This document shows positions 3,948 through 64,000 of a stretch of 64,000 nt of DNA, piece by piece. The first letter of the stretch is position 1, and each line of letters starts with the position of its first letter. Source of the DNA: an uncultured Syntrophomonadaceae bacterium. Lineage in GTDB: Bacteria > Bacillota > Dethiobacteria > DTU022. The stretch covers positions 5,231 to 69,230 of the forward strand of contig CAYMDO010000008.1 of the NCBI GenBank assembly GCA_964389365.1, read 5' to 3'. The notes beneath the pieces were generated by a model. The model was not told the DNA's origin. It did not search any database and saw only the letters and a list, made by a program, of their open reading frames with translations. Made by a program: the position numbers and the translations under genes.

Positions 3948-5225
3948 GTGCGGATTATGATCGTTGGCAGCGGCGGTCGGGAGCATGCCCTGGCCTGGAA
4001 ACTGAGCATGAGTCCACGGGTGCAAAAAATCTATTGTGTTCCGGGAAACGCCGGCATCGCGCAGGCAGCCAAATGCCTGCCGGCTGACCTTGAGGACTCC
4101 GACAGGTTTGTTCATCTGGCCGTGCAAAACGAAGTGGACCTGGTGGTAGTCGGACCGGAGGCGCCACTGGCGACAGGCCTGGTCGATGCCCTTACCGCCG
4201 CCGGGGTGCCGGCTTTCGGTCCCGGCAAGCTTGCCGCTCAACTGGAAAGCAGCAAGGTCTTTGCCAAGCAGTTGATGGAGAGGTACCAGATCCCGACCGC
4301 TGCCGGCAGTGTTTTTACCGGTTCGGCAGCCGCACTCGCTGAGATTGAAAAGAGAGGTGTCCCCATTGTCGTTAAGGCAGATGGCCTGGCTGCCGGCAAA
4401 GGAGTAATTGTAGCCGCCACCAGGGAAGAAGCGGCACGTGCCGTCCGACTGATCATGGAGGAGCGCGCCTTTGGCTCTGCCGGTAACAAGGTTCTTCTTG
4501 AATAATACCTGGCGGGAGAGGAACTTTCTGTTTTGGCGTTTACCGATGGCGAAACGGTCGTCCCGATGGCCTCCGCCCAGGACCATAAGGCCGTCTTTGA
4601 CGGCGATACCGGCCCTAACACCGGCGGCATGGGAGCGTATTCCACGGCGCCTTTGCTGACGCCGGAACTGCTTGCAGAAGTGCAGGAGGAAATCCTGCTG
4701 CCCACCGTCCGCGCCCTGCGTCGTGAAGGCATCGTTTTCCGGGGCGTTCTCTACGCCGGGCTGATGATCACGGCCGGCGGCCCTAAAGTAATGGAATTCA
4801 ACGTACGCTTTGGCGATCCGGAATGCCAGGTAATCCTGCCCCGTTTAAAGAGTGACCTAGGAGCGGTAATGTTAGCCACGATTAACGGCAACCTAGGCGA
4901 GCAGGACCTGCACTGGCACAACTACCATACTGCCTGTGTAGTTATGGCTTTAGGCGGCTACCTGGGACCTTACGAAAAAGGTCACTCTATTTCCGGACTG
5001 GAGCAAGCAGCAGCTATGCCTGATGTCCAGGTCTTTCACAGCGGCACGGTACTTCAGGACGGTAAAACGGTGACCAACGGTGGCCGCGTTCTTTCCGTTA
5101 CGGCCTGGGGCGCTTCCCTGCCGGCGGCCCTGGACAAAGCTTACGCCGCCTGCCGGGTCATATCTTTTACCAGTGCATACTACCGGAAAGACATCGGCCA
5201 CCGTGCCCTGCGCCGGGAAGTTTAA
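3948..5225 (+). pseudogene. purD: phosphoribosylamine-glycine ligase interrupted by an in-frame TAA
   Basis: ORFs 3948..4505 and 4533..5225 are in the same frame. The sequence reads ..GNKVLLE-TAA(4503-4505)-YLAGEELSVLAFTDGETVVPMASAQDHKAVFDGDTGPNTGGMGAYS, so continuous PurD similarity runs across the stop. Confidence 0.85.
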
Positions 5226-6513: not shown

Positions 6514-6879
6514 ATGCCTTTTAAGCCTAAACGTCCCTGTTCCCATTTCAGCTGTCCGAAGCTGACGGACGATAGGTTTTGCGCAGAACACGCCAAAGAG
6601 GAAGCAAAACGGTACGAACGTTACCAGCGCGACCCGGCGACGCGCAAGCTCTACGGCCGGACGTGGCGGAAGGTGCGCGACCGCTACCGCGCGGCGCATC
6701 CGCTCTGCGAACGCTGCTTAGAGCAGGGAAGGATTACGCCGACGCAGGAAGTCCACCACGTCAAGCCGCTCGCGCAAGGCGGCACCAACGATGACGATAA
6801 TCTCACGGCGTTGTGTACTTCCTGCCACTCGGAGATCACCGCGCGTGAAGGCGGACGCTGGCAGAGACGCTTAGAATAA
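6514..6879 (+). CDS. HNH endonuclease (phage type)
   Basis: 121 aa, apparently intact. ..HPLCERCLEQGRITPTQEVHHVKPLAQGGTNDDDNLTALCTSCHSEIT carries the HNH motif and Cys pairs. Confidence 0.85.
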   Translation: MPFKPKRPCSHFSCPKLTDDRFCAEHAKEEAKRYERYQRDPATRKLYGRTWRKVRDRYRAAHPLCERCLEQGRITPTQEVHHVKPLAQGGTNDDDNLTALCTSCHSEITAREGGRWQRRLE

Positions 6880-7146
6880 ATCACTGTGGGTACCCGTGCG
6901 GGTCAGCGTAAGGATTAGAACATCGTTCTCAATACGATAGATAAGCAGCCAATCGGGCTGGATATGACATTCCCGATGCCCGACATAGGTGCCGGTCAAT
7001 TCATGGTCGCGGTTACTCGAAGGAAGCGGGATGCCCTGCGCCAGCTTCGCAATGATTTTGTCAAGCAAGGAAATATCCAAGTTGCGTTTTCCCATCAGCT
7101 TGTAGTCCTTGCGGAATCTGCTTGTTAGTTTGACGGTATATTTCAT
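6871..7146 (-). CDS. type II toxin, YafQ/RelE family
   Basis: 91 aa. MKYTVKLTSRFRKDYKLM...HELTGTYVGHRECHIQPDWLLIYR is typical of YafQ-like mRNA interferases. It overlaps the upstream antitoxin gene by 4 nt. Confidence 0.85.
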   Translation of the reverse strand: MKYTVKLTSRFRKDYKLMGKRNLDISLLDKIIAKLAQGIPLPSSNRDHELTGTYVGHRECHIQPDWLLIYRIENDVLILTLTRTGTHSDLF

Positions 7147-7415
7147 GCTTTCAAATCCTTAAACAGCGCGTCAAGATCGGTATAACCCCTAACGTTCGGG
7201 TCGCGGGCAATGGTTTCCGCTTCTCTCATTGCCGCGATTGTTTCTGCATTCGGAACACGGGAAATCTTAAACGGGATTCCTTGGAACCGTACAGCCTGCC
7301 GAAGGAACATGGTCATGGCTGTGGTCATATTGAGACCCAAGTCCGAGAAGAGTTCTTCGGCCTGCTTCTTAAGTTGAACATCCATCCGGATGCTGACATT
7401 TGTGGTTTCATTCAT
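7143..7415 (-). CDS. type II antitoxin, DinJ/RelB family
   Basis: 90 aa. VSIRMDVQLKKQAEELFSDLGLNMTTAMTMFLRQAV is a DinJ-like ribbon-helix-helix N-terminus. Confidence 0.85.
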   Translation of the reverse strand: MNETTNVSIRMDVQLKKQAEELFSDLGLNMTTAMTMFLRQAVRFQGIPFKISRVPNAETIAAMREAETIARDPNVRGYTDLDALFKDLKA

Positions 7416-7439
7416 GGCATTACACTCCTTTCATTGCTT

Positions 7440-7477
7440 AGTATATTCAATATACTGCATGATATTTACGTTGTCAA
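7440..7477 (-). promoter_or_regulatory. sigma-A-type promoter with overlapping palindromic operator for the TA operon
   Basis: On the minus strand: TTGACA (7477-7472), a 17-nt spacer, then TATATT (7454-7449). A perfect palindrome agtatat-tca-atatact at 7440-7456 overlaps the -10, about 25 nt upstream of the antitoxin ATG. Confidence 0.55.
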
Positions 7478-7611
7478 TGCAAAAGCAAAATGTGTGCGTC
7501 CGGTAGGGGCGGTCAAAATCTCTGCAACCTTCGCCCAGGGCAACGGGCGGCGGGTCACGCGCGAAAAAATCACGGTTCAAACAGGGGATTAAGCCCCGCC
7601 GCGGCAAGGAG

Positions 7612-8283
7612 GTGAGGGCGTGTGGCAAAAGACGGAATAACCCGTGGCTGCGGCGCTACGTCAGCCCGGACGACGGGCTATTGGGCAGGAACCGGCATAA
7701 CAACCACTGGAACCAGGACAGGCCCGACGGACGGCTGGTTTGTGTCCATGCCTTTATCGGGAGGCTTGCGGATGGCTCAATTGCCACTTACCAGACTTTG
7801 CCGTGGAACCATCGCGGCTGGCACTGCGGCAGATGCGTGAGAGGCTCCGGCAACGACACGCATATCTCCTTCGAGATCAGCGAGGATAACCTGACCGACG
7901 CTGCCTATTTCAACGCCGTGTACAAGGAAGCCGCAGAACTTTGCGCTTTCCTCTGCAAAGAGTACACCCTTGATCCAATGGCTGACGGCATTATCATCGG
8001 GCATTATGAAGGGCATAGGCGCGGCATCGCTTCCAACCACGCAGACCCCGGTCACTGGTTTCTAAGGCACGGGAAGTCGATGGACACCTTCCGCGCCGAG
8101 GTCAAGTGGCTACTCACGTCGGGCGAAACGCCGAAGCCACCCGCTCCCGCGCCTGCGCCTACCGAGTCGAAAAAGCTGTACCGCGTTCAGGTCGGGGCGT
8201 TCAGCTCCAAGGCAAATGCCAACGCGATGCTCGCCCGGGTAAAGGCGGCGGGGTTTGTCGACGCTTTCATCAAAACCGAATAA
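7612..8283 (+). CDS. N-acetylmuramoyl-L-alanine amidase (Amidase_2) with C-terminal SPOR domain, probably N-terminally truncated
   Basis: NNPWLRRYVSPDDGLLGRNRHNNHWNQ..LVCVHAFIG..YQTLPWNHRGWHCG..THISFEISE..IIGHYEGH..SNHADPGHWF, then a PAPAPAP linker and KLYRVQVGAFSSKANANAMLARVKAAGF (SPOR). The segment that normally precedes NNPW, which holds the first Zn-ligand His, is missing. The only good SD (AAGGAGGTG) feeds GTG 7622 in a different frame. Confidence 0.7.
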   Translation: MRACGKRRNNPWLRRYVSPDDGLLGRNRHNNHWNQDRPDGRLVCVHAFIGRLADGSIATYQTLPWNHRGWHCGRCVRGSGNDTHISFEISEDNLTDAAYFNAVYKEAAELCAFLCKEYTLDPMADGIIIGHYEGHRRGIASNHADPGHWFLRHGKSMDTFRAEVKWLLTSGETPKPPAPAPAPTESKKLYRVQVGAFSSKANANAMLARVKAAGFVDAFIKTE

Positions 8284-8310
8284 TTCGCACGTTTCGGTTG
8301 CCAACTTACA

Positions 8311-8350
8311 CCCCTCCCTGTCCTGTGGATAGTGAGGGGTTTTCCTTTTT
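8311..8350 (+). terminator. possible terminator after the amidase gene
   Basis: cccctc (8311-8316) pairs with gagggg (8334-8339) and is followed by ttttccttttt. The loop is large (17 nt). Confidence 0.35.
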
Positions 8351-8375
8351 CCACTCCGAAACGGAGGAATAGCCT

Positions 8376-8780
8376 ATGACCACATTACAAAAAGAACGAA
8401 TAGTTCATCTGCGCTCGCAAGGCGAAAGCTATGCGAGAATTGCCAACGAACTTAGAATATCGGAAAACACCGTTAAGTCTTGCTGTCGCAGAAACAATGT
8501 CAGCGTTGGTACAAAACAAGAACAGTACACTTCTAAGGATGTCTGCGACAACTGCGAATGTCCGCTCTTACACACGCCGGGGGCGAAGCGGAAACGCTTC
8601 TGCTCCGACAAATGCCGTATGATGTGGTGGAAGGCTCACCCCGAAGCCGTAAACCGCAAGGCAGTCTACCGTTTCGCCTGCCCGGCCTGCGGAGCGGAAT
8701 TTGAAGCTTGCGGGAACACGCATCACAAATACTGCTCGCGGTCTTGCTTCGGGGCGGCGAGGAGGACTTCCGATGAGTAA
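8376..8780 (+). CDS. HTH (sigma-70 region-4-like) plus Cys-rich zinc-ribbon protein
   Basis: 134 aa. LRSQGESYARIANELRISENTVKSCCRRN is a helix-turn-helix. Several CxxC pairs follow downstream. From memory, this gene type commonly precedes serine recombinases in clostridial elements. Confidence 0.6.
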   Translation: MTTLQKERIVHLRSQGESYARIANELRISENTVKSCCRRNNVSVGTKQEQYTSKDVCDNCECPLLHTPGAKRKRFCSDKCRMMWWKAHPEAVNRKAVYRFACPACGAEFEACGNTHHKYCSRSCFGAARRTSDE

Positions 8781-9012
8781 AGACGAGGCAATCCCACGCT
8801 ACAAAGCGTCAATGTCCGTGTTCAAGAAATGGCTTGATGGCGGCGTTATCACCCAGGCTGACCTGAGATCAATTGATACAATGCTCGCTTTGAAATACGG
8901 TTTATCCTCGTGCAGCATATTCCTCGAAAAAGACTTGCTATGTAAGGAAAGCAGAGTGATAGATGGTACTGCGAAAGAAGGCCGTTATGGGCAGAAAGAT
9001 AACGAAAATTGA
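8773..9012 (+). CDS. small hypothetical protein of the recombinase module
   Basis: ATG 8773 overlaps the upstream stop. 79 aa (MSKDEAIPRYKASMSVFKKWLDGGVITQADLRSIDTMLALKYGL..). Function unknown. Confidence 0.4.
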   Translation: MSKDEAIPRYKASMSVFKKWLDGGVITQADLRSIDTMLALKYGLSSCSIFLEKDLLCKESRVIDGTAKEGRYGQKDNEN

Positions 9013-10303
9013 ATCTACGGCACAGATGCCAACCAGACAACGGGTCGCGGCGTATGCCCGTGTTTCCTGCGGGAAGGACGAGATACTCCACTCCCTTGCC
9101 GCTCAGGTCAGCTTTTACAGTAACCTGATACAAAGCAATCCCGAATGGGAGTATATCGGCGTATACGCAGATGAAGCTGAAACCGGCACAAAGGGTTCAA
9201 GACCTGAATTTCAGCGACTGCTTGCCGACTGCCGTGCGGGGCGCATCGACCTTATCCTAACAAAGTCAATCAGCCGTTTTGCAAGGAACACGGTCATGCT
9301 ACTTGAAACTATCCGAGAGTTGAAAGGCATCGGCGTTGGCGTGTTTTTCGAGGAGCAGAATCTGCACTCGCTTTCGGGCGATGGGGAGTTGATGCTCACT
9401 ATCCTCGCAAGCTACGCACAGGAAGAAAGCCGCTCGGTCAGCGAAAACTGCAAATGGCGTATCCGCAAGGACTTTAAGGAGGGCAGGCCCGGGGGCAACA
9501 TCCGCATTTACGGATTCGACTACAAGGACGGCAGACTGACCGTCATTCCGGAGGAAGCCGAGGTCGTGCGGATGATATACGCCGACTATTTGTCGGGGCT
9601 TGGCAAGAACGCCATTATGAAGAAACTGGTCAGGCTCGGAGTGCCGACGAAATGCGGCGGCCGATGGTCGGAAAGCACAGTGGGTTCAATCCTTAAGAAT
9701 GAAAAGTACATCGGTGATATGTACCTGCAAAAAGGCTTTATTTCCGACCACATCACAAAGAATTGGAAGCCAAACAACGGCGAGTTGCCTAAATACTATG
9801 TCGAGGGCAACCATGAAGCGATTATCGACCGTGAGACCTTTGAGTCTGTTCAGGCTGAAATAGCACGGCGGGCAGAAAATGCAAACCACCCTCGCAAACG
9901 GACATTCAGTGAATTTTCAGGACTTATCACTTGCGGTCGGTGCGGTGCAAAATTTCGCAAAAAGATAAACTCAATCAACACAAAATATGCTGCGGTGACA
10001 TGGGCTTGCGCTACTTTCACTTATAAGGGTAAGCACGAATGTGCTGCGAAACGTATACGCGAAGATATCCTTAAAGAAAAGTGCGCCGAGGTGTTGGGGC
10101 TTTCCGAGTATGACCCCGCCGTGTTCACGGCAAAGGTAGCCTCAATTAGAGTCCCTGACGACGGCGTTCTGATATTCACATTAAAAGACGGCACGGAGCA
10201 GACGATTAACTGGGAGAACCGCTCCCGCCGTGAAAGCTGGACGGATATGAGGAAGCAAACCGCCCGTGAAAAGGCTTTGACGGGAGACGGTCGAAATGGC
10301 TAA
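8987..10303 (+). CDS. large serine recombinase
   Basis: [13 protein letters not shown] (catalytic Ser region), [31 protein letters not shown], a recombinase domain and a Cys-rich zinc beta-ribbon (CGRCGAKF..C). 438 aa, apparently intact. Confidence 0.9.
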
Positions 10304-11543
10304 TGTACGGGTAATCCCCGCCACTGCCCCTGTCGTTTCGGCCCAAGAGAGAAATTCAGCAGCCAGACGCAGAGTAGCCGCCTACGCAAGGGTCAGCACC
10401 GACAGCGACGAGCAGCTCACCAGCTACGAAGCTCAAGTTGACTACTACACAAAGCTAATTTAAGGGCGGTCGGATTGGAAATTTGTCACAGTTTATACGG
10501 ACGAGGGCATTTCAGCAGTGAACATGAAACGACGTGAGGGCTTCAAGCAGATGGTTGCCGACGGCTTGGCGGGTAAGTTTGATTTACTCGTTACCAAGTC
10601 GGTGAGCCGTTTCGCCCGAAACACGGTTGACAGTCTGATCACTGTCCGTAAGCTTAAAGATGTCGGTTGCGAGGTCTGGTTTGAAAAGGAAAACATCTTC
10701 ACACTCGACAGCAAGGGCGAACTGCTGATTACGATAATGTCCTCGCTGGCACAGGAGGAAAGCCGCTCCATTTCAGAAAACGAGACGTGGGGTCAGCGCA
10801 AGCGCATGGCCGACGGCAAGGTCAGCCTTCCGTATGCCCAGTTCCTCGGTTACGAGAAGGGCGAGGACGGTTTGCCAAAGGTAGTCCCCGCCGAAGCGGA
10901 GATTGTGCGGCCGATATTCAGGCTATATATGGAGGGCAAGACATTCTCGGCAATCGCCAAGTACCTCGGCAGTTATGACCTCCCTTCGCCGGCGGGCAAG
11001 AAAACATGGCAGACGGCGGTGGTGCGGTCAATCCTGACCAATGAAAAATACAAAGGCCACGCGCTTTTGCAAAAGACCTACTGCTCGGACTTCCTCACCA
11101 AGAAGATGGTCAAGAATACTGGCCAGGTACAGCAATATTACGTCGAGGACAGCCATCCCGCCATCATCGAGCCGGACGAATTTGACGCGGTTCAGGTAGA
11201 GATAGAGCGCCGCCGCTCGATTGGCAAACCGACAAGCTGCACGAGCATTTTCGCAGCGAAGATTGTTTGCGCCGACTGCGGCGGGTGGTTTGGCAAAAAG
11301 GTCTGGGGCAGTTACAAGGGCGATAAGACCTACCGAAAGGAAGTCTGGCAGTGCAACTACAAGTACAAACGGCTCTGCAAAGCGAAGATTATCGAGGGCT
11401 TCATTCGGGACATCGAGAGCCGACCGCTCGCCATCACCGAGTTCGACGAAAAGTTATGGCTCGCCGTCATTGACCAAGCGATCGTCAGCAGAGACGGCAC
11501 GATGACATTCAGGCTCAGGAACGGCTCTGAAGTCGTCGCATAA
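10296..11543 (+). pseudogene. large serine recombinase with premature in-frame TAA
   Basis: ATG 10296 gives [39 protein letters not shown], then TAA (10461-10463), then the same frame continues [42 protein letters not shown]... The C-terminal part looks shorter than in typical family members. Confidence 0.85.
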
Positions 11544-11886: not shown

Positions 11887-12239
11887 TGGTGGAGGCGGCG
11901 GGAATCGAACCCGCGTCCGAAGGCACAGCTGCAGAAGTTTCTACAAGTTTAGTTCCGGATTTGTTTCTCGCGCCCCCGGCTCCCCGGAACGGGATCTTTC
12001 GGCGCCAGCCCCGTTTGTTTTCCCTCGGCAGCGAAGAGGCAGCCGCTATCGAAGTAGGCCGGATTAGTGACGCCCCTGCTCCTTCCCCCGGCCGGGGTGG
12101 GGAGGGACGCGCTACTTTAGATTAAGCAGCGAGTGCTAATTTAGGTTTGGCGTTTATAGCCGTTCCATGTTTTAACCAGGCCATGGTCCTGGACCTGCCT
12201 CTTCTGCTTCCAAAACCCCCGTCGAATCCTTACGCCCCC
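11887..12239 (-). ncRNA. ssrA: tmRNA (transfer-messenger RNA)
   Basis: On the minus strand the 5' end is GGGGGCGTAAGGATTCGACGGGGG (12239 downward) and the 3' end is ..GGTTCGATTCCCGCCGCCTCCACCA (to 11887). An internal tag frame reads ..AAA CCT AAA TTA GCA CTC GCT GCT TAA (..KPKLALAA, stop at 12122-12124). It lies directly downstream of smpB. Confidence 0.92.
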
Positions 12240-39479: not shown

Positions 39480-40620
39480 CTATTTCTTCAGAGGAATCAT
39501 CCCGCGCGCTTTCCAGCGCAGGTACGCTTCGATAAATGGATCAAGCAGGCCGTCCATAACCGCCTCGACCTGCCCCACCTCGGTGCCGGTCCTGTGATCC
39601 TTAACCAGGGTAAAGGGGTGGAAAGTATAGGTACGGAACTGGCTGCCAAAACCAATTTCACGTTGCTGGCCTCTCTCGGCGTTAATCTCTTCAGCCTGTT
39701 CGCGCCGCGCTATCTCAGCCAGGCGAGCCTGCAGCACATGCATCGCCTGCTGGCGGTTGGCATGCTGGGAGCGGTCATTCTGGCAGCTTACGACAGTACC
39801 GGTAGGCAGGTGGGTAATGCGCACTGCCGAATCGGTTTTATTCACATGCTGGCCGCCGGCCCCGCTGGCCCTGAAAGTGTCGATCTTCAAGTCTTCCGGG
39901 TTAATAACAAAATCTTCTTCTTCAACTTCCGGAATCACGTCGACCGAGGCAAAAGATGTATGACGCCGCTTAGAGGTGTCAAAAGGCGAAATGCGGATCA
40001 TGCGGTGAACCCCTTTTTCAGCCTGCAGGTAGCCGTATGCAGCATGGCCGCGCACGATAAAGGTGGCGCTTTTAATACCGGCTTCATCGTCGGTTAAAAG
40101 ATCCACCAGTTCGACCGTGAAGCCTTTCTGCTCGCACCAGCGCATGTACATCCTGAGCAGCATTTCCGCCCAGTCCTGCGACTCAAGCCCTCCGGCGCCG
40201 GGATGCAGGGCCACAATCGCATCATTTAAATCATAGCTGCCGCTGAAGAGGGTTTCCAGTTCCAGCTGATCCAGCTTTTCAGCAATCTCGCGCAGGATCG
40301 GGTCTGCTTCCCGGACAGCTTCCTGTTCGGCGGCTTCTTCTTCAGCAGCTAGCTCGAGAAAGATTTCCGCCTCCCCGATCAGTTTATCCAGATCCTGCAC
40401 CGGGCGCACCTGTTCGCGCAGGGCCCCCATTTTTTTCATCTGTTCCTGGGCCCGGGCGCTGTCCTCCCAAAATTCGGGCTTGACCGTTTCCGCTTCCAGG
40501 GCTGCCAGATCGTGCAGTTTCAGTTCAAATTCAAAGAGAAACCCTCATTTCTTCCAGCCGCTCCCGGTGGAGGGCCAGTTGTTCAAGATTTTCCTTCAGC
40601 ATTTGATCACCATCTTTCAT
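39480..40620 (-). CDS. prfB: peptide chain release factor 2, requiring a programmed +1 frameshift
   Basis: ORF0 runs ATG 40620 .. CTT TGA (TGA at 40531-40533), giving 29 codons ending ..RVSL. The +1 frame continues EFELKLHDLAALEAETVKPEFWED.. into ORF 39480..40439, which carries the SPF and GGQ (RASGAGGQHVN) motifs. An SD-like GAGGG lies upstream of CTT TGA. Confidence 0.93.
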
Positions 40621-51592: not shown

Positions 51593-52921
51593 CTAGAGCC
51601 TGCCGGCCAGAACCTCTTCCAGCTGGGCGATTGTGCTGCATGGCCACATTTCAGCCAACTCCGATACCATGACAACGGAGCGGTAGTCGGCCCAGCGATC
51701 AGGCGGCAGCGGGTTGAGCCAGATTACCCGCCTGACGCGCTCTTTAATTTTAGCCAGTTCTTTTATCGATTGATCTAGCGCTACAGTTTTCGTATCGCTG
51801 ACTATGATCAGCGTGGTTTTCATATTGACCCGGTCGGGGTAATCAGTCATCAACCTGCCGAGAGCCCGGCTGATATCAGTTCCCCCGCCCCAGTTGCCGC
51901 TGCGCCGGATCACCCTGTCCAGCAGGTTGTTTAAGACTATCTTACCCTTAATCCCGGCATCTAGGTTTTCAAGGTTATCAGAAAAGCTGAAGCAGGAAAG
52001 ATCCCTGACTGCCTCGTGCAGGCCGTAAAGAAAATGGATAACAAAAGAGCTGTAGCTTTTCATTGACGCCGATACATCACAGAGCAATAAAATCTGCTCC
52101 CTGGTGCGCCGTTTCGGCCTGCGCCTGATCTTAAAAAGAAGCCCGCCGTACTGCATGTTGTCGCGAATCGAACGACGGAAGTCCAACGGCCCGCTGCGCG
52201 GGCCGCAGCGGCGGCGGCGCAGGATTTTTACAGCCAGCTTCCTGGACAGTCTTTGCATAAGAAGTTCAGCTGCCGGCAGGTCTGAGGCCGCTATGGCGGC
52301 AATATCTATTTCGCGCAGGTAATCACCGGCATCCCCGACGCTGCCGGTGCCATCAGCCGCGCCGGAGAATTCTGCGCGGTTGTGTTTTTCAGCATCGCGG
52401 TTGCGGCAGTAGCGCAAATGGCTTTTTACTACCGTTTCCAAAACCGGTTTAAAGCGCTGCTCGACATTTTTGCCGTTTTCAGTTTTCTGCATAAACTCTT
52501 TCAGCTGACTGCGCTGATCGGCAGAAAGGGAGCTGTACTGCTGCAGTTCCTCGAGGCTCAGCTGCAGTGCCTCGCCCTTGAACCGCAAATCCCGGTTGGC
52601 TTCTTCCAACCGTCTCTTAAACTCATACTCCCGGCGGCCGAGCTCTTCTTTGCGCAATAACTGCTCTTCAGGAGTCAGGAAAAATTGATCAAAAACCCTG
52701 GTAAATACTGCCTGGTCGCGCCTGCTTTTCACCATTGCAGCCTGCAGGGTTGACTTAAACTGCGCCCGCGATGCGAGGTCAATCAGCTCAAGCGCCTTCA
52801 AGGCATCGATCACTTCAGCCGTGCCCACGGGCAGGCCCTCATTGCGAAGCAGGCCGGTAAAAATGGTTAGATTCATCTCAAAGCGGCCAGGCCCCTGTTT
52901 GCCTGTCAGCTGCAGCTGCAC
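51593..52921 (-). CDS. VWA domain protein, CoxE-like
   Basis: The C-terminal VWA has a MIDAS motif (LLLCDVSASM), ..WGGGTDI.., ..IIVSDTK.., ..VIWLNPLPPDRW.., which I recall as the CoxE-type pattern. The start is uncertain (52921 or ATG 52876). Confidence 0.8.
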   Translation of the reverse strand: MQLQLTGKQGPGRFEMNLTIFTGLLRNEGLPVGTAEVIDALKALELIDLASRAQFKSTLQAAMVKSRRDQAVFTRVFDQFFLTPEEQLLRKEELGRREYEFKRRLEEANRDLRFKGEALQLSLEELQQYSSLSADQRSQLKEFMQKTENGKNVEQRFKPVLETVVKSHLRYCRNRDAEKHNRAEFSGAADGTGSVGDAGDYLREIDIAAIAASDLPAAELLMQRLSRKLAVKILRRRRCGPRSGPLDFRRSIRDNMQYGGLLFKIRRRPKRRTREQILLLCDVSASMKSYSSFVIHFLYGLHEAVRDLSCFSFSDNLENLDAGIKGKIVLNNLLDRVIRRSGNWGGGTDISRALGRLMTDYPDRVNMKTTLIIVSDTKTVALDQSIKELAKIKERVRRVIWLNPLPPDRWADYRSVVMVSELAEMWPCSTIAQLEEVLAGRL

Positions 52922-53832
52922 GCTTCACCGCCACACTTCTTGTCGATTATAGCCTGCTCAATCCCCTCAGGACCGATCTGGACGGCAAACAGCTGTTGGT
53001 CAGCCCTGGTTTTAAGCAGCAAATTGAGGGTATCGGTAACGACCTTGCCGTCCAGGTGGCTGCGGTCCAGCGCCTGCAGGGCTCTGGTCCAGTCCAGGGT
53101 CTCGGCAATCGAAGGCTTTTTACGCAGGTCCGGCAGACGGCGCAGCCTGGCAACCACCCGGGCGATCTCCCAGGCCAGGCGGTCGGCGATTCCCGGCACC
53201 CTGGCTTTGATAATCTCCACCTCTTTTTCAACCGCGGGGAAATCGAGGTATAAATATAGGCAGCGGCGCTTAAGCCCGTCTGAGAGCTCGCGCTCATTAT
53301 TGCTGGTTAAAACCACTACCGGTATGTTCCTGGCCGGTATCGTGCCCAGCTCCGGAATTGAAACCTGAAAATCGGAGAGCACTTCAAAAAGAAAAGCTTC
53401 AAATTCGGGATCGCACTTGTCAACTTCATCGATCAGCAGCACAGCCTGCCTGTCGGCACGGATTGCCCGCAGGAGCGGACGCTCCAGCAGATAGCGGTCG
53501 GAGAAGAGGTCCTCTTCACGGATTTCCGCCTCTTCCAGGTTGCGGTTCATCTGGATCTTAAGCAGCTGGCGCTGGTAGTTCCACTCGTAGAGCGCTTTTG
53601 TTTCATCCAGACCTTCGTAGCACTGCAGACGGATTAGTTCAGAACCGATGGCCCGGGCCAGCACTTTGCCCATTTCCGTTTTGCCCACTCCCGGCGCCCC
53701 TTCAATCAGCAGCGGTTTCTTCAGTTCCAGGGCTAGAAAGACCGTAAGCACGGTTTGCTCTTCACAGATATAGCCGGCCTCTTTAAAACTGTTCCTTAGT
53801 TCACCCAGGGATAAACCCATAAATGCCATCAT
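52906..53832 (-). CDS. MoxR-class AAA+ ATPase, CoxD-like
   Basis: LLIEGAPGVGKT Walker A, VLLIDEVDK Walker B, about 308 aa. Paired with the downstream VWA gene. Confidence 0.85.
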   Translation of the reverse strand: MMAFMGLSLGELRNSFKEAGYICEEQTVLTVFLALELKKPLLIEGAPGVGKTEMGKVLARAIGSELIRLQCYEGLDETKALYEWNYQRQLLKIQMNRNLEEAEIREEDLFSDRYLLERPLLRAIRADRQAVLLIDEVDKCDPEFEAFLFEVLSDFQVSIPELGTIPARNIPVVVLTSNNERELSDGLKRRCLYLYLDFPAVEKEVEIIKARVPGIADRLAWEIARVVARLRRLPDLRKKPSIAETLDWTRALQALDRSHLDGKVVTDTLNLLLKTRADQQLFAVQIGPEGIEQAIIDKKCGGEACSCS

Positions 53833-54000
53833 TCCTTCTAGTTGTTTTTCAATTAAAAATGTCTCTTACAATGCCGTTTTAATGATACTACAAAGCAGGG
53901 AGGCGGGCAAACAATAAACGCGGGTACTGCCGATATATTTATTGCAATATGATAAAATACAATCGTTCCTGAAGCAATTCCAAAAATGGGAGGTTCTATC

Positions 54001-54876
54001 GTGAAATATAGCGGTCAGTCGGAAACCGGCAGGATTGAAGCAATTTTGATGAAAAAACCGGAGGCGGCCTGGATCAGCCAGCAGAATACTGACAGCCAGT
54101 GGCGGCAGCTTAATTATCCGTCAGCCCCCGATTATGAAAAAGCACTCGACGAATACAGCCGGTTTGCCGCAATTATCGAAAACCATGTCGGGGAGGTGCA
54201 CTACCTGCCCGAAGACGGCAGTGTCGGCCTCGATTCAATCTACACCCACGACCCGGTGATTATAACCCAAAAAGGGGCCATCCTCTGCAGCATGGGCAAA
54301 AAAGAGCGTGTACCGGAACCGCAGGCCGCCGCACGATATCTGCAGGGCATTGGTATGCCGGTAATCGGAGAAATTAAAGCCCCCGGCAGAGTCGAGGGCG
54401 GCGATATCGTCTGGTTTGACGATGATACAGTTGCGGTCGGGATTGGCTACCGCACCAACCGCGAAGGGATTGCCCAGCTGCGGAAGCTGACAGAAGGCCT
54501 AGTCAGGGAAGTTATAGAGGTGCCGCTGCCGCACGGTAACGGGCCTGCTGAGTGCCTGCACCTGATGTCGATGATCAGCCCGATAGACCGCGACCTGGCC
54601 GTGGTCTATTCACCGCTGATGGTGGTACCGTTCCGCGAGCTGCTGATTGAAAAGGGAATCAGGTTTGTCGAGGTGCCGGCTGAAGAATACGACACATTCG
54701 GCTGCAACGTGCTGGCGCTGGCCCCGCGCAAATGCGTGATCATCGCCGGCAACCCGAAGACCAAAGCCGGCCTGGAAGAAGCCGGAGCCACCGTGTACGA
54801 ATACCCGGGCGAGGATGTTTCAATCAAGGGGGGCGGCGGCCCGACCTGCCTCACCCGCCCGCTGCTGCGCACCTGA
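54001..54876 (+). CDS. amidinotransferase-superfamily hydrolase (dimethylarginine dimethylaminohydrolase / arginine deiminase-like)
   Basis: GGGAGG lies 7 nt before GTG 54001. ..DSIYTHDP.., ..GGDIVWFDD.. and C-terminal ..IKGGGGPTCLTRPL (catalytic Cys motif of the guanidino-modifying fold). The size (~291 aa) fits DDAH better than ADI. Confidence 0.7.
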   Translation: MKYSGQSETGRIEAILMKKPEAAWISQQNTDSQWRQLNYPSAPDYEKALDEYSRFAAIIENHVGEVHYLPEDGSVGLDSIYTHDPVIITQKGAILCSMGKKERVPEPQAAARYLQGIGMPVIGEIKAPGRVEGGDIVWFDDDTVAVGIGYRTNREGIAQLRKLTEGLVREVIEVPLPHGNGPAECLHLMSMISPIDRDLAVVYSPLMVVPFRELLIEKGIRFVEVPAEEYDTFGCNVLALAPRKCVIIAGNPKTKAGLEEAGATVYEYPGEDVSIKGGGGPTCLTRPLLRT

Positions 54877-55023
54877 AATTTGACACAGGACAGTTGAAGC
54901 CGATGCCAGCCGGTGCTAAAGATCCGAGTATGCCCTGACCAGCTTCCCCCGGCTTCCAACCTTTTGCCTCTATATATCGAGTCCCCCACCTGCCGGCAGG
55001 CGTGATTTTTATCACCACTACTA

Positions 55024-56493
55024 TTACCTTATGCCCAGTTCTTCCTCCCTGGCAGCAATAACCGCCAGCAGTTCTTCGTGCACCCCGCCCGGCAGGGGAT
55101 CGGGCCGGTGAGTCTCCAGGATCTCCCGTGCCTTCTCATCACATACGGCAGCAAGATCCTTTGCGCCCTTTTCGTTCCAAAACTGCCGCATCCGCCGGTC
55201 GATATATAGCGGGCTGGACAGTTTGCGCATATGATGATAAGTATGATCCTCGGCTAAAAAGTGGCCACGCGCGCCTACGCTTTTGATCACGTCAACAGCC
55301 AGGGTATCATCGGTAACAGGGATCCCCTCCAGCACCTTCCTGGTCATGGCAATAATCTCGTTATCCATGACCAGCTGGCCGAAACTCATCGTCAGGCCCA
55401 TCTCAAGCATCCCCCCGCCGTAAATCATATTGGCACCTGCCAGGGCCGGCAACAGGGTGGTGAGTGTCTTTTCATGGCCCGACTGAGCATCGGATAGTTT
55501 CGAATCGCCCTACGTGCCCGCCACATAGCTGGGCAGCAGGTACATCTGGGCCAGCTTGGCTACAGCCGCGCTGATCAAGCCAAGCTCCGGGCAGCCAACT
55601 GTTGCCGTGGTCTGTTTCAGGTCGATCATCGAAGTCGAACTGCCGTACATTACCGGGGCTCCTTTCCTGGTTAACTGGGCGAGCACAATGCCGCCGAGTA
55701 CCTCCGCATTGTGGGTAACCAGCGTCCCGGCCAGCGTGACCGGCGAGGTGGCGCCTGCAAGTGCCATCGAGAGTATGTTCTGGGGCAGGTTGGCCCGGGC
55801 ATATTCGATGATCGGGTCGGCGCAGCCTTCCGAAATGGTTAAAGGGCTCTGTGGGCAGGTGCAGCCGGAGACAATCGGCCGCTCTTTTAACTGTTCACGC
55901 CCCCCCGCCACCGCTGCCGCCATTTCGATCAGCAGCTGTGCCGAGCGCTTATCATGACAGGGCTGGGGCACATGCTTGGTTGTATTCGACACCGTAACCT
56001 CGTAGTTGTGCAGGCTTTCCATCTCGGGGTGCACGTCGCGGGGGGCAACAGTATTTTCAAGCATGTCGTACTGGTCGAGGGCATCGACCAGGCGGGCCAC
56101 ATCGCCCTTATCCTTCTTGGTCGATTTGCGGTATTCTCCGCTGTACGGATCGATAACCATCACCCCTTCGCCGAAGGGGCAGAAATTGACGCGGCCGCTC
56201 TCCAGCACAATATCGTGCTTCGGGTCGCGCCCGGCAAGAAAGACCTTTTTCGGGGCGCTGCCGATCGCTTCCTCCACAATATGGGCCGGTATTTTAACGA
56301 TCCGGCTGTCCCGATCCACATTGCAACCCCCGCCCTCGTAAATATCTATGGCGTTGTTGCTCTGGACAAAAAGCCCGGTATATTCCAGCACCTCCAGCGT
56401 AGCGTCATGGATCATCTCTAAATCCGAATCGGAAAACAGGCTGAGGCTGCAGCCCAAAAAAGAGCTTCTGCCGGCTATCCGGTTTCTTTTCAT
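55024..56493 (-). CDS. mttB: trimethylamine:corrinoid methyltransferase with in-frame UAG (predicted pyrrolysine)
   Basis: ORFs 55510..56493 and 55024..55452 are in the same frame. The only stop between them is TAG at 55510-55512: ..[48 protein letters not shown]... The joined length is 489 codons with the UAG at codon 328. From memory, Methanosarcina MttB is ~495 aa with Pyl at ~334. Confidence 0.88.
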
Positions 56494-56517: not shown

Positions 56518-57909
56518 TTATTTTAAGCCGGTCTTCGCTTTAAACCGTTCCACCGAATTGATGCTGATTCCCAGGATCCCTGCAATCCTGATCTTGGCCT
56601 CAATGCCTTTTGCCGCCCCGGGTTCGGGCATCGGGTAGCCGATATCGAGGGACTGCCTCAGTTCGCGCATCACCGAGCAATCACCCAGGTCAAACGGCGT
56701 TACCCCCAATTTGGCGGCAACATAATCTTTTGCCCGGTCGATCTTCAGGCCGCGGGCCAGCTGCATCCTCAACACCAGATCTCCGGCAGTGCGGATACCG
56801 CCCATCCCGACAGCAACTTCCTGTGTAGCCTCGTTGCCGAAAGGATCACCGGAGCCCACCTATAAACCGTCGGCCTTGCCAATCTCGACCAGCGACTTTG
56901 CCGCCCGCGATACAGCATCGACCGGCGGCACCGGCGACAAAGGCGTTGCCCCCACGCCCATGCCTACATTGGCATGGACCGGGATAGAAGCCGCTTCAGC
57001 ACAAGCTTTGACAAAGGTGACCGCCCGTGCCAGGTTCCAGGGAAAAGTCTTATTGCTGTTGGTATTGATCACCGGCCCGAAAATGCTGACCCCGGCTTTC
57101 GCAGCCAGCTCGGCCTGCCGGTGGGGATAGAGCCCGGCCAAACGCTGCCCATCAAACTCAAGTTTACCGTGCATGCCAAGAATAAATTCGCCTGCCATAC
57201 CCATCTCGATCCCCAGGCCGGGGTACTTTTGTTTAATTTCCCTCGCTGCCAGCAGCGCGGCCAGGATATCGGCATCGCCTGAAGCGCCGCAGGTGTCGAG
57301 GTTAATGCCGTCGGCGCCGGCAGCATACATACCCCCGGCTATATAGACTATATCCCTGACAGCCAACTCGACAGCTTTTTCCTGCGCCTCCCGCGCCTCC
57401 ATAATTTTACCAAGCGGCAACAGCTCCGACCAGTTCTCGACCGGGCCGTCAGGTTTGGTGTAGAGGCCCAGGTTGGGCATCGCCCCGTAAAGAACCGGCA
57501 TAATCGAGTTCACCTGCACATTTTCCATTACCTTGGCTTCATCGTGCAGGATTGCTTTCACCGATTTAAAACTGTAGTCTATGTTGCCCAGGTCAAGCGA
57601 GTCGGCCGCGAGCACCTTTTCATGGACCTGGATCGCCGTGGCCCGGTCAAGCGAAATATTAGCCTGGTAGTTAATCTTGAAAGCCCCTGAATCAGAAGAG
57701 GTAACAATCTCTTTCCCCCTGACCACACTGGCCACATTAACCGGTGAAGTAACTATCTCAAACAGGTAATCGAGCTCATCGGCATTAAGCTCCGGGATCT
57801 TTCCCCGGTCGGCCGCATCGCGAGTGCCGCTTTCAAGCTCATCCTTAATCTCTGCAGCGCTTAAGCGCACCGCTGATCCGTCGCCCATGCGGGTTAAAAA
57901 TGATTCCAA
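56518..57909 (-). CDS. mtbB: dimethylamine:corrinoid methyltransferase with in-frame UAG (predicted pyrrolysine)
   Basis: ORFs 56860..57963 and 56518..56859 abut in the same frame across TAG 56860-56862: ..EIGKADGL-TAG-(V)GSGDPFGNEATQ... The likely start is TTG 57909, 8 nt after AGAGGTG, giving MESFLTRMGDGS... The joined product is 463 codons with the UAG at codon ~350. From memory, archaeal MtbB is ~467 aa with Pyl at ~356. Confidence 0.88.
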
Positions 57910-58136
57910 AACAGCAACACCTCTTTCAGCTATCATGCCCAGACGGCAGCTAAAGTAAACCACTCTAATAATTCATGATCAACTGCCGTTCTCCTCTAAC
58001 AAAAAAAGATCGGCAGGATGATGTTCAGGCCGGCAAAAGAGGTGGCTGCGGGAAATCCACCCCGGGCAGGGTAATCCTGAGTTTGCAGGAACCTGCCTTG
58101 GGCAATAATAACTTGATAACCTTACAGACAGAGTTT

Positions 58137-58163
58137 TATACGTTCTATACGTTCTATACGTTC
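58137..58163. repeat. three perfect tandem copies of a 9-bp unit (tatacgttc) upstream of mtbB
   Basis: tatacgttc tatacgttc tatacgttc, about 230 nt upstream of the mtbB start, in the only sizeable non-coding stretch before the operon. Confidence 0.85.
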
Positions 58164-58251
58164 TGCTTCAGATTACAAAGAAAGCAGTTACAATGACTAT
58201 ATACAACCGCGTAAAGGCCAGATAACGGATACAGAATTTGCTTTAAGTCTG

Positions 58252-58515
58252 ATGAGCAGAAAGCAGTTTGCAGAATACCACAATGAGGGTGGCGACGAGA
58301 AGTGCTTGGATATACGGGATGTGAAGAGGGTCGGTGACAGCAAGGCTCAGGCTATACTTCAGGCTGTCAGCCAATGTGGTGATGCATCCGAGTTTCAGGG
58401 ATTGCCGCGTGAGAAGAGGGACCGGTATTTGGTTCACTTGAAAGAGAAGGGGTTATCTGTGAGCCAGATCGAAAGATTGACAGGTGTAAACAGGGGAGTT
58501 GTACGGAAGGCATAA
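58252..58515 (+). pseudogene. orphan C-terminal fragment of a transposase-like protein (HTH tail)
   Basis: 87 aa. ..AQAILQAVSQCGDASEFQGLPREKRDRYLVHLKEKGLSVSQIERLTGVNRGVVRKA resembles, from memory, the C-terminal tail of IS200-like/REP-associated Y1 transposase-like proteins of Firmicutes. No catalytic domain is present. Confidence 0.35.
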
Positions 58516-58534
58516 TCGTGTTGTCAAACCCCCG

Positions 58535-58564
58535 TCCCCCCGGCACGCTTCCCCCCGGCACGCT
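58535..58564. repeat. perfect tandem duplication of a 15-bp unit (tccccccggcacgct)
   Basis: Copies at 58535-58549 and 58550-58564, directly downstream of the transposase-like fragment. Confidence 0.85.
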
Positions 58565-58689
58565 ATTATTCATGCCCTCTTCATCGCATTATTTAATTCA
58601 TTCTTAAAAGTTTGCCATAAGAAAGGATTCTGACAACTTGCCAGCGAATTGATTAGCTGTTTATACAATCAGTAGGAGGAGGATTTGAG

Positions 58690-62926: not shown

Positions 62927-62987
62927 CTTATAGGGTCAACTGCGATTAATTTATAGCTTTGGCCTTTTTGCACCAAATAAGAATTAT

Positions 62988-64000
62988 ATGAGCAATGTGC
63001 TTCGGAAGGAGCAGGTAGAAATATTGATCGAACAAGCAAGAAAGGTAATAGACTACTTAAAAGAATATACTTTCCAAGGAAATGATAACCTATCTCTATT
63101 TCCCACAGATAGCCGCACTATAATTGAGCCAATTGATATAAACGGAGTAAAAGTTAATAAATATATTAATGAATACTGGACTTCAAAACAGCGGCAATCA
63201 TCTTCAATTCACGAAATATCCTATCGCGCTTGCTTCAAAGCCCAATTGCCGCGATTCTTTATCAGACTTCTAACCGACCCGGGTGATACAGTATACGATC
63301 CTTTTAGTGGTCGTGGCACTACCGTTATAGAAGCAGGTATTCTTGGTAGAAAAGTTATTTCTAATGATATCAATCCTATAAGCAAGATTATTATCAGGCC
63401 TAGACTATCTAGCCCTGATGCAGAATTGATAGATCTAAGGCTTTCTGAGATTTCATTATATAAAAATATTAAGGCTGACATTGATTTGTCGATGTTTTAT
63501 CACCCTGAAACTGAAGCGGAGGTAGTATCTATAAAGCAATACCTGGATGGCAGAAACGAAGCCGGGGAAGAAGATGATCTAGACCGTTGGATTAGAATGG
63601 TTGCTACAAATCGCTTAACCGGACATTCATCTGGTTTCTTTTCTGTCTATACTTTACCGCCTAATCAAGCTGTTACCCAAGAAAGCCAAATTAAGATTAA
63701 TATTAAACGTAATCAAAAACCAGACTACCGGAATACAAAAAGGATTATAAAGCGCAAAACAGTAACGCTTTTAAAAAAAATGAAAGAGACGGAAGTTGTT
63801 AACTTGAGAAATGCAGCAAAAACTGTCTTGTTTATTGAAAAAGATGCCCGGGAAACAAGTGAAATTGAAACTAACAGCGTAAGCTTAACTGTAACTTCAC
63901 CTCCTTTTCTTGATATCGTGCAATATTCGCAGGATAATTGGCTGCGCTGCTGGTTTAATAGTATCAATACTGATGCCATAGAGAAAAAAATTACCATGTC
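62988..64000 (+). CDS. DNA methyltransferase (N4/N6 class), 3' end outside the window
   Basis: The frame is open from ATG 62988 to the window edge (translated by hand, no stops; it is absent from the ORF track because it is unterminated). It carries DPFSGRGTTVIEA (FxGxG AdoMet motif) and ..LTVTSPPF.. (catalytic SPPF/DPPY-type motif). The sequence is AT-rich, unlike its surroundings. Confidence 0.75.
   Translation, partial: MSNVLRKEQVEILIEQARKVIDYLKEYTFQGNDNLSLFPTDSRTIIEPIDINGVKVNKYINEYWTSKQRQSSSIHEISYRACFKAQLPRFFIRLLTDPGDTVYDPFSGRGTTVIEAGILGRKVISNDINPISKIIIRPRLSSPDAELIDLRLSEISLYKNIKADIDLSMFYHPETEAEVVSIKQYLDGRNEAGEEDDLDRWIRMVATNRLTGHSSGFFSVYTLPPNQAVTQESQIKINIKRNQKPDYRNTKRIIKRKTVTLLKKMKETEVVNLRNAAKTVLFIEKDARETSEIETNSVSLTVTSPPFLDIVQYSQDNWLRCWFNSINTDAIEKKITM

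Follow-up and report, generated by a model that had tools for sequence, protein, structure and literature searches.

In-frame UAG codons of an mtbB-mttB gene pair in an uncultured Bacillota bacterium are predicted to encode pyrrolysine

The mtbB and mttB genes

In the 64-kb window (the whole stretch of DNA analysed in this study), two neighbouring genes on the minus strand resemble pyrrolysine (Pyl)-type methylamine methyltransferase genes, and each of them has a single in-frame UAG codon. The following features were assigned.

57909 to 56518, minus strand: mtbB, predicted dimethylamine:corrinoid methyltransferase gene of 463 codons, with a TTG start, a TAA stop codon (56518-56520) and one internal UAG
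57918 to 57925, minus strand: Shine-Dalgarno-like AAGAGGTG, 8 nt upstream of the mtbB TTG, read from the sequence
56860 to 56862, minus strand: predicted pyrrolysine codon of mtbB, the in-frame UAG at codon 350 (context ..ADGL-UAG-VGSGDP..); the peptide across it would be ADGL-X-VGSGDPFGNEATQEVAVGMGGIR, where X is the UAG-encoded residue
56518 to 56859, minus strand: segment of mtbB after the UAG, 113 codons and the stop codon, probably translated within the full-length protein, as selection and the conserved tail suggest
56493 to 55024, minus strand: mttB, predicted Pyl-type trimethylamine:corrinoid methyltransferase gene of 489 codons with one in-frame UAG
55510 to 55512, minus strand: predicted pyrrolysine codon of mttB, the in-frame UAG at codon 328 (context ..SYVAGT-UAG-GDSK..)

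In the ORF list, mtbB appears as two abutting minus-strand ORFs in one frame (56860-57963 and 56518-56859). An earlier note on this DNA had read the junction as ..GAC GGT TTA TAG GTG GGC TCC GGT GAT CC.. with the TAG at 56860-56862, and had joined the two ORFs into a product of 463 codons from TTG 57909. The junction is seen in the sequence exactly so, and the translation agrees with the joined product: 57909 to 56518 gives 464 codons, that is, 463 residues and the terminal TAA, with codon 350 as the sole internal stop and an N-terminus reading (TTG) ESFLTRMGDGS. TTG 57909 is also the start called for the identical database protein P0001 and the place where the orthologues begin, and an AAGAGG or AAGGGG motif precedes mtbB at the equivalent place in the orthologues. 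Farther upstream, no conservation of upstream regions or upstream genes was found among the orthologues, and the small ORFs of the 780-nt spacer upstream of mtbB had no family matches.

A profile alignment, proposed as a check in the earlier note, identified the joined product as a Dimeth_Pyl protein (Pfam PF09505, E = 7e-182, 605.5 bits with a cut-off of 25). The match runs unbroken across the UAG, from residue 4 to 458 of MtbB against profile positions 3-462 of 463. The NCBIfam equivalog TIGR02368 ([dimethylamine--corrinoid protein] Co-methyltransferase) gave 499.9 bits, above its cut-off of 369.1. Judged from these profiles, the split frame is no chance junction of ORFs, since the joined product is matched in one stretch, and mtbB is by its full-length match a member of the pyrrolysine-type dimethylamine methyltransferase family.

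The mttB gene, which had gone unmentioned in the earlier note, begins 25 nt downstream of the mtbB stop codon. Pfam MTTB matches both halves of its product, and the NCBIfam equivalog TIGR02369 (trimeth_pyl) gives 713.9 bits with a cut-off of 525. The window MttB aligns with Methanosarcina barkeri MttB (PDB 7XCM) over 480 residues (E = 3e-125), and the UAG-encoded residue X328 falls on residue 334, which is Pyl334 in the solved structure (PMC9842639). Positions 1-3 of the Rfam model RF02510 also lie on the mttB TAG. Among the mttB homologues of at least 45 % identity, 41 of 43 have kept the TAG. In the MttB-superfamily genes of these loci with less than 45 % identity, the Pyl column mostly holds a sense codon, which agrees with the non-Pyl branch. 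The alignments thus place the window mttB among the Pyl-type genes, with its UAG at the Pyl334 column.

A sequence search returned no solved structure of the MtbB family. As a proxy for the window protein, a fold model was made of P0004, a full-length homologue with 66 % identity. The model (pLDDT 79.6, pTM 0.83) is a (β/α)8 TIM barrel with a poorly modelled tail, and a β-strand closing the well-modelled core carries the Pyl column. Foldseek with this model found only generic TIM barrels with a TM of 0.39 or less (the MetH homocysteine domain, BHMT, and M. mazei MtaA among them). The modelled barrel agrees with a corrinoid-dependent methyltransferase without giving more specific information.

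The UAG codons, the pyrrolysine columns, and the sequence after the UAG

Is the mtbB UAG at the position where archaeal enzymes have pyrrolysine? I compared 81 homologous mtbB genes in 79 loci, taken from one genome per GTDB species and having 49-89 % identity. The aligned codon is TAG throughout this set of 81, and in no case TAA, TGA or a sense codon. The motif around it is DGL-TAG-(V/I)G.GD, and a conserved open tail of 110-118 codons follows the TAG in every homologue whose contig reaches so far. Archaeal entries were retrieved with an approximate Methanosarcina MtbB sequence that served as a bait only. The entries are named Methanohalophilus halophilus, Methanolapillus millepedarum, and Methanosarcinaceae archaeon, and all are 355 residues long, that is, stopped at codon 356. 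The 349-residue product of the window and the 355-residue products of the Methanosarcinaceae end in one and the same alignment column; the offset between codons 350 and 356 results from one 5-residue indel near residue 80 and from the N-terminus. These archaeal entries agree with M. barkeri MtbB1-3, in which pyrrolysine presumably is residue 356 of about 467. Moreover, positions 1-3 of the Rfam model RF02509 (the mtbB PYLIS), which represent the UAG, fall on the window TAG. On these alignments, the mtbB UAG sits in the archaeal pyrrolysine column. The earlier note had put the UAG at about codon 350, close to the ~356 of Methanosarcina, and had named the Pyl column as a point to check; the codon proved to lie flush with the ends of the archaeal products and on position 1 of RF02509, and its conservation in 81 of 81 homologues leads to the same answer.

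More than 3,600 MtbB homologues exist in the databases, and nearly all are stored as fragments of 349-352 residues cut at the UAG (355 in the archaeal entries). The rare full-length entries carry Q at the UAG column. Since other members of their clusters stop there, the Q stems from an alternative-code translation of TAG. One full-length homologue, the above-mentioned P0004, has TTG in this column, which differs from TAG by a single base.

Both UAG codons are also covered by matches to Rfam models of the PYLIS RNA element.

56763 to 56862, minus strand: match to RF02509 (PYLIS_2, mtbB), 48.9 bits with a gathering score of 36
55413 to 55512, minus strand: match to RF02510 (PYLIS_3, mttB), 72.8 bits with a gathering score of 38

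Although these scores pass the gathering thresholds, a PYLIS RNA element was rejected. Many of the modelled helix pairs are non-canonical in the window alignment, and the folding was not above the controls: the folding z after the mtbB UAG was -1.63, compared with -1.92 for an upstream control segment, and that after the mttB UAG was +1.84, that is, less stable than the shuffles. Neither the Rfam pairs nor folding against controls gave a stable or covarying RNA structure downstream of either UAG. The PYLIS matches are best read as a footprint of coding-sequence conservation, as far as the alignments tell.

The 47 window genes end in TAA (27), TAG (10) or TGA (10). UAG is a normal stop codon in this organism and not a reassigned one. 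Therefore, pyrrolysine decoding must compete with termination, and read-through may be conditional. Prat and colleagues reportedly described in 2012 that the pyl cassette is induced by the substrate in other Pyl-using bacteria, and the TAG usage here matches this. In Pyl-using methanogens, TAG is rarely used or avoided (PMC3941956).

The two parts of mtbB were assessed against eight orthologues, whose synonymous divergence is near-saturated. The dN/dS values were 0.04-0.06 in the part before the TAG and 0.05-0.12 in the tail. For mttB, both parts had values of about 0.03-0.07 where they could be measured. Purifying selection of this kind on the tails, kept up from species to species, presupposes that the UAG is regularly translated.

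Genomic neighbourhood and decoding of the UAG codons

Apart from mtbB and mttB, the window holds ordinary chromosomal DNA, with pur genes, tmRNA/smpB, rnr, eno-pgm-tpi-pgk, rpoN, whiA, rapZ, uvrABC, ftsEX, prfB, secA, hpf, recD2, and metK. Within the 64 kb, ARAGORN found no tRNA-Pyl (CUA) or pylT gene, and tblastn found no pylS, pylB, pylC or pylD. A corrinoid protein from another mtbB locus, L042, had no window match at E <= 1e-5 in tblastn over the same 64 kb, and no B12-binding domain was found among the scanned window ORFs. The same query matched a gene adjoining mtbB in about 40 other loci. Indeed, in most of the other mtbB loci fetched, a corrinoid gene adjoins mtbB, often together with pylT or pylSBCD; a tRNA-Pyl (CUA) gene lies within 10 kb of mtbB in 12 of the 79 loci. 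L042 has the complete textbook cluster of bacteria, with the order mttB(TAG)-mtbB(TAG)-corrinoid-pylT-pylSc-pylB-pylC-pylD-pylSn.

The closest relatives of the window locus are found in MAGs labelled Syntrophomonadaceae or Bacillota, and the closest mtbB loci in the one-per-species genome scan are 87-89 % identical to the window. Seven loci of such MAGs with 77-89 % identity (L001, L002, L004, L008-L010, and L012) have kept the gene order mtbB, mttB, a DDAH-like gene on the opposite strand, (an AAA/VWA pair), a ParA-like gene, a phosphoribosyltransferase gene, metK, and recD2. In the closest relatives (L001-L014), the orthologous mtbB-mttB pairs likewise have no pyl or corrinoid genes beside them. 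This clade-specific operon, lacking a corrinoid gene and lying inside a housekeeping block, is the one mildly unusual feature of the locus.

Three MAGs with a window-like locus also carry a second, L042-like mttB-mtbB-corrinoid locus (L035, L036, and L041), a type that is joined to pylT-pylScBCDSn in L042 and L027. Thus, the partner genes of the window mtbB-mttB pair are most likely encoded elsewhere in the genome, as this comparison of relatives suggests. Related MAGs of the Bacillota and Dethiobacteria commonly carry a pyl cassette. On the other hand, six relatives of the L042 PylSc could be traced to the MAGs JAABTH01, JAWSUH01, and JBLRXJ01 or to other runs; none was in SRR11582140, the run with an identical MtbB protein, and none in the assemblies holding window-like loci.

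It was therefore considered whether mtbB and mttB are intact while the genome has lost, or never had, a pyl cassette. The two genes would then be non-functional relics or a differently decoded pair, whose UAG codons terminate translation, are read by another suppressor, or rely on pyrrolysine or Pyl machinery from outside. The bare mtbB-mttB pairs of the window and of L001-L014, as well as the absence of the traced PylS relatives from the same sample and from the relatives' assemblies, would agree with this. However, several facts speak against it: the sequence after the UAG is under strong purifying selection between species whose synonymous divergence is saturated, MAGs with window-like loci have a second mttB-mtbB-corrinoid locus, and pyl cassettes are frequent in the related MAGs. 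I regard it as very unlikely.

Even less credit can be given to the notion that the TAGs are inactivating nonsense mutations, leaving mtbB and mttB as pseudogenes cut to 349 and 327 residues. The window does hold one gene with a probable nonsense mutation, purD, with an in-frame TAA at 4503-4505, and it holds no Pyl machinery. However, the TAG occupies the identical column in 81 of 81 mtbB and 41 of 43 close mttB homologues, both tails are free of further stops and frameshifts, and the dN/dS after the TAG is about 0.05, the same as before it. Since TAG is kept in all 81 homologues and the tail is under purifying selection, a nonsense mutation is excluded. Both TAGs also match the experimentally established archaeal Pyl positions, and the pseudogene explanation is effectively refuted.

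Equally hard to sustain is a split mtbB, in which an N-terminal part of 349 residues and a C-terminal part of 113 residues are made separately, the second from a GTG codon, and assemble without pyrrolysine. The window codon after the TAG is indeed GTG, a possible start, but no Shine-Dalgarno sequence precedes it (..GCCGACGGTTTATAG GTG..). Among the 81 homologues, the codon following the TAG is a canonical start in only 15 and GTA, ATA, ATT, GTT, ATC or another codon in the rest; thus, separate initiation of the C-terminal part is not conserved. Furthermore, the residue at the UAG column is the catalytic one in archaeal methylamine methyltransferases. In archaeal MttB, its catalytic role has been described (PMC9842639).

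Finally, the chance that the mtbB TAG is a sequencing or assembly error in place of a sense codon, which the metagenomic origin of the contig and the TTG of P0004 might suggest, is practically negligible, since the independent Logan assembly of run SRR11582140 (where a 1.5-kb contig is the only other source of the identical MtbB protein) is 100 % identical over 1,480 nt (window 56567-58046) including the TAG and rules out an assembly artefact, the orthologues of other assemblies all have TAG, and two independent errors exactly on both Pyl columns are implausible.

It is thus very probable that mtbB and mttB form a two-gene operon of an uncultured Bacillota bacterium, in which each single in-frame UAG is decoded as pyrrolysine. 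The main claim of the earlier note, an in-frame amber codon in an MtbB homologue with a predicted pyrrolysine, is borne out by the profile match, the alignment column, the invariant TAG, and the selection on the tail. As in the homologous archaeal enzymes, the pyrroline imine of pyrrolysine would bind and activate dimethylamine in MtbB or trimethylamine in MttB. A partner protein with a Co(I) corrinoid would then take over the methyl group, which would go on into one-carbon metabolism. For this, tRNA-Pyl, PylS, PylBCD, a corrinoid protein, a second methyltransferase, and an activase would have to be encoded elsewhere in the genome, and the read-through might be conditional, as TAG also serves this organism as a regular stop codon. 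The pyrrolysine in the MtbB protein and the dimethylamine:corrinoid methyl transfer are thus predictions from sequence.

The DDAH-like amidinotransferase gene (53986-54876) lies tail-to-tail with mtbB-mttB; it is conserved and has kept its catalytic Cys motif. One may speculate that the window-type clade represents a distinct orphan mtbB-mttB arrangement that has lost the corrinoid gene usually found between or next to mtbB and mttB, with the DDAH-like neighbour possibly supplying dimethylamine. If the DDAH-like enzyme frees dimethylamine from dimethylarginine-like guanidino compounds, the breakdown of protein methylarginine would be linked to Pyl-dependent methylotrophy in subsurface or alkaline Bacillota, a route that is undescribed. 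I consider this very unlikely. The functional link between DDAH and MtbB is retained as no more than an improbable idea, since only the closest orthologue loci show this adjacency and the transcription of the genes converges, which fits plain synteny.

Bacterial mtbB genes and comparison with known systems

It was stated in 2014 that mtbB is found "almost exclusively" in Methanosarcinales (PMC3941956). The earlier note had supposed that bacterial mtbB genes are rarer than bacterial mttB genes, an impression of rarity that is explained by this statement. That older view is contradicted by the more than 3,600 database homologues, which are mostly bacterial and metagenomic: the best matches are mostly from bacteria, although clustering at 50 % identity reduces the sequences to only 433 clusters. 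The spread of Pyl-type mtbB in bacteria is thus much wider than older papers would have it. Several cases have been described. A dataset of Olavius symbionts from 2007 contained seven Pyl MtbB sequences, six of them from the δ1 symbiont (PMC1976440), Pyl MtbB is known in marine Desulfobacterota (PMC8318568), and 23 of the 96 methylamine methyltransferases of Peptococcaceae strain DCMF, 'Ca. Formimonas warabiya', have pyrrolysine (PMC6778437).

The window locus adds one case to a well-known gene type that has already been seen in many bacteria, and it leaves the understanding of pyrrolysine decoding and methylamine metabolism unchanged. It probably represents one more bacterial lineage using the 22nd amino acid. 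Its value lies rather in annotation: standard gene callers split both genes, and nearly all MtbB homologues are stored as fragments of 349-355 residues. Thus, the capacity of this uncultured Bacillota lineage to demethylate trimethylamine and dimethylamine would be missed or mislabelled.

Compared with the archaeal systems, the window MtbB shares its Pfam and NCBIfam family with M. barkeri MtbB1-3 over the full length and has about 47-50 % identity with the Methanosarcinaceae homologues. The UAG column, the motif DG(L/I)-Pyl-(I/V)G.GD, and a neighbouring mttB that also has a UAG are common to both. In contrast to the M. barkeri gene, the window mtbB has a bacterial host, its protein is 5 residues shorter with one indel near residue 80, and there is no adjacent mtbC corrinoid gene and no pyl gene in the 64 kb. 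TAG is a common stop codon in the window organism (10 of 47 genes), while it is rare in the Pyl-using methanogens (PMC3941956).

The window mttB resembles that of M. barkeri (PDB 7XCL and 7XCM; Pyl334) in the register of the UAG and scores above the TIGR02369 cut-off, but it has a bacterial host and lacks an adjacent mttC. The non-Pyl members of the MttB superfamily, such as Desulfitobacterium hafniense MtgB (PDB 2QNE and 4YYC), belong to the same Pfam MTTB fold family. However, their substrates are quaternary amines and their Pyl column is occupied by a sense codon, whereas the window mttB has TAG and groups with the Pyl-type clade.

Among bacteria, the described Pyl-MtbB systems of the Olavius algarvensis delta-1 symbiont, Desulfobacterota, and DCMF have an in-frame UAG and a Pyl-type mttB, as in the window. 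Three DCMF loci (L016, L031, and L040) are 59-72 % identical to the window mtbB, with the TAG at the same codon. In the described bacterial genomes, mtbB lies beside a corrinoid gene and often pylT/pylSBCD. In contrast, the window-type clade (L001-L014) has mttB directly after mtbB, no corrinoid gene, and a setting amid housekeeping genes.

Genes downstream of mttB

The Pyl-type trimethylamine methyltransferase gene (mttB, 56493 to 55024, minus strand) is followed in the window by these features:

53986-54876, plus strand: DDAH-like amidinotransferase gene, tail-to-tail with mttB
51593-53832, minus strand: gene pair, AAA_5 ATPase (MoxR/CoxD-like) with VWA protein (CoxE-like)

The top PDB matches of the DDAH-like product are Pseudomonas aeruginosa dimethylarginine dimethylaminohydrolase (E about 1e-14), and the GGGGPTC catalytic-Cys motif is retained at its C-terminus. 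NCBIfam equivalog cut-offs are missed by far. Dimethylamine is both the substrate of MtbB and the product set free by DDAH. The adjacency of mttB and the DDAH-like gene is kept in the closest relatives' loci (L001, L002, L004, L008-L010, and L012), and plain synteny may account for it.

In two of these loci, a gene for a metallo-beta-lactamase-fold protein of 223 amino acids lies between mttB and the DDAH-like gene (L002, 2927-3598; L010, 12926-13597). The corresponding interval of the window (54877-55023) is only about 150 nt long, which suggests that the gene was deleted in the window's lineage. As for the AAA_5/VWA pair, "MadB family AAA-type ATPase" and "MadC family VWA" rank highest in NCBIfam, with scores far short of the cut-off in each case. 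L002, L004, and L009 carry these two genes, which are missing from the corresponding position in L008, L010, and L012.

The spacer upstream of mtbB

57964-58689: spacer of about 730 nt between mtbB and a divergent sodium:solute symporter gene

An Rfam search of this spacer gave no match, and its small ORFs matched no family. With L001 the spacer has just one stretch of about 60 nt in common, and the gene upstream of mtbB is a different one in each orthologue. This makes mtbB a synteny breakpoint.

Other features of the window

3948-5225, plus strand: purD (GAR synthetase), with an in-frame TAA at 4503-4505
6514-11543, plus strand: HNH endonuclease, N-acetylmuramoyl-L-alanine amidase, small HTH protein, and two serine recombinases
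11887-12239, minus strand: tmRNA (ssrA), adjoining the preceding group
39480-40439, minus strand: prfB (release factor 2), an ORF of 319 amino acids without the N-terminal part
62934-64000, plus strand: open frame with an N6/N4 DNA methylase domain, at least 355 codons, continuing past the 3′ end of the window

The TAA of purD (..NKVLLE*YLAGEE..) separates two halves in the same frame, one matching GARS_N/GARS_A and the other GARS_A/GARS_C. This stop probably arose by nonsense mutation (GAA to TAA) or through a sequencing error; in other respects purD is a housekeeping gene. The group at 6514-11543 looks like the remnant of a phage or mobile element integrated at the tmRNA gene, and the missing N-terminal part of prfB presumably reflects the usual programmed +1 frameshift. 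The DNA methylase frame has no relation to the mtbB finding.

MtbB homologues with another residue at the pyrrolysine column

Some public full-length MtbB entries (P0072, P0180, and their cluster members) have Q at the pyrrolysine column. Real Gln variants were ruled out, since other members of the same 90% clusters stop at this column; the Q is TAG read under an alternative genetic code. A more distant representative of 463 amino acids (P0398, 38% identity) may be a non-Pyl MtbB, as may a closer one, P0004. The latter is a full-length homologue with 66% identity to the window's MtbB (L081, 10001-11401; GCA_016278615.1, JADQBM010000005.1), in which the pyrrolysine column is a genuine sense codon, TTG (Leu), in the context ..KIDGL-L-IGTGD... 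Its gene is isolated, as mttB, corrinoid, and pyl neighbours are all absent at the locus. P0004 is a possible non-Pyl representative of the MtbB family, of which the published descriptions cited present the amber codon form only.
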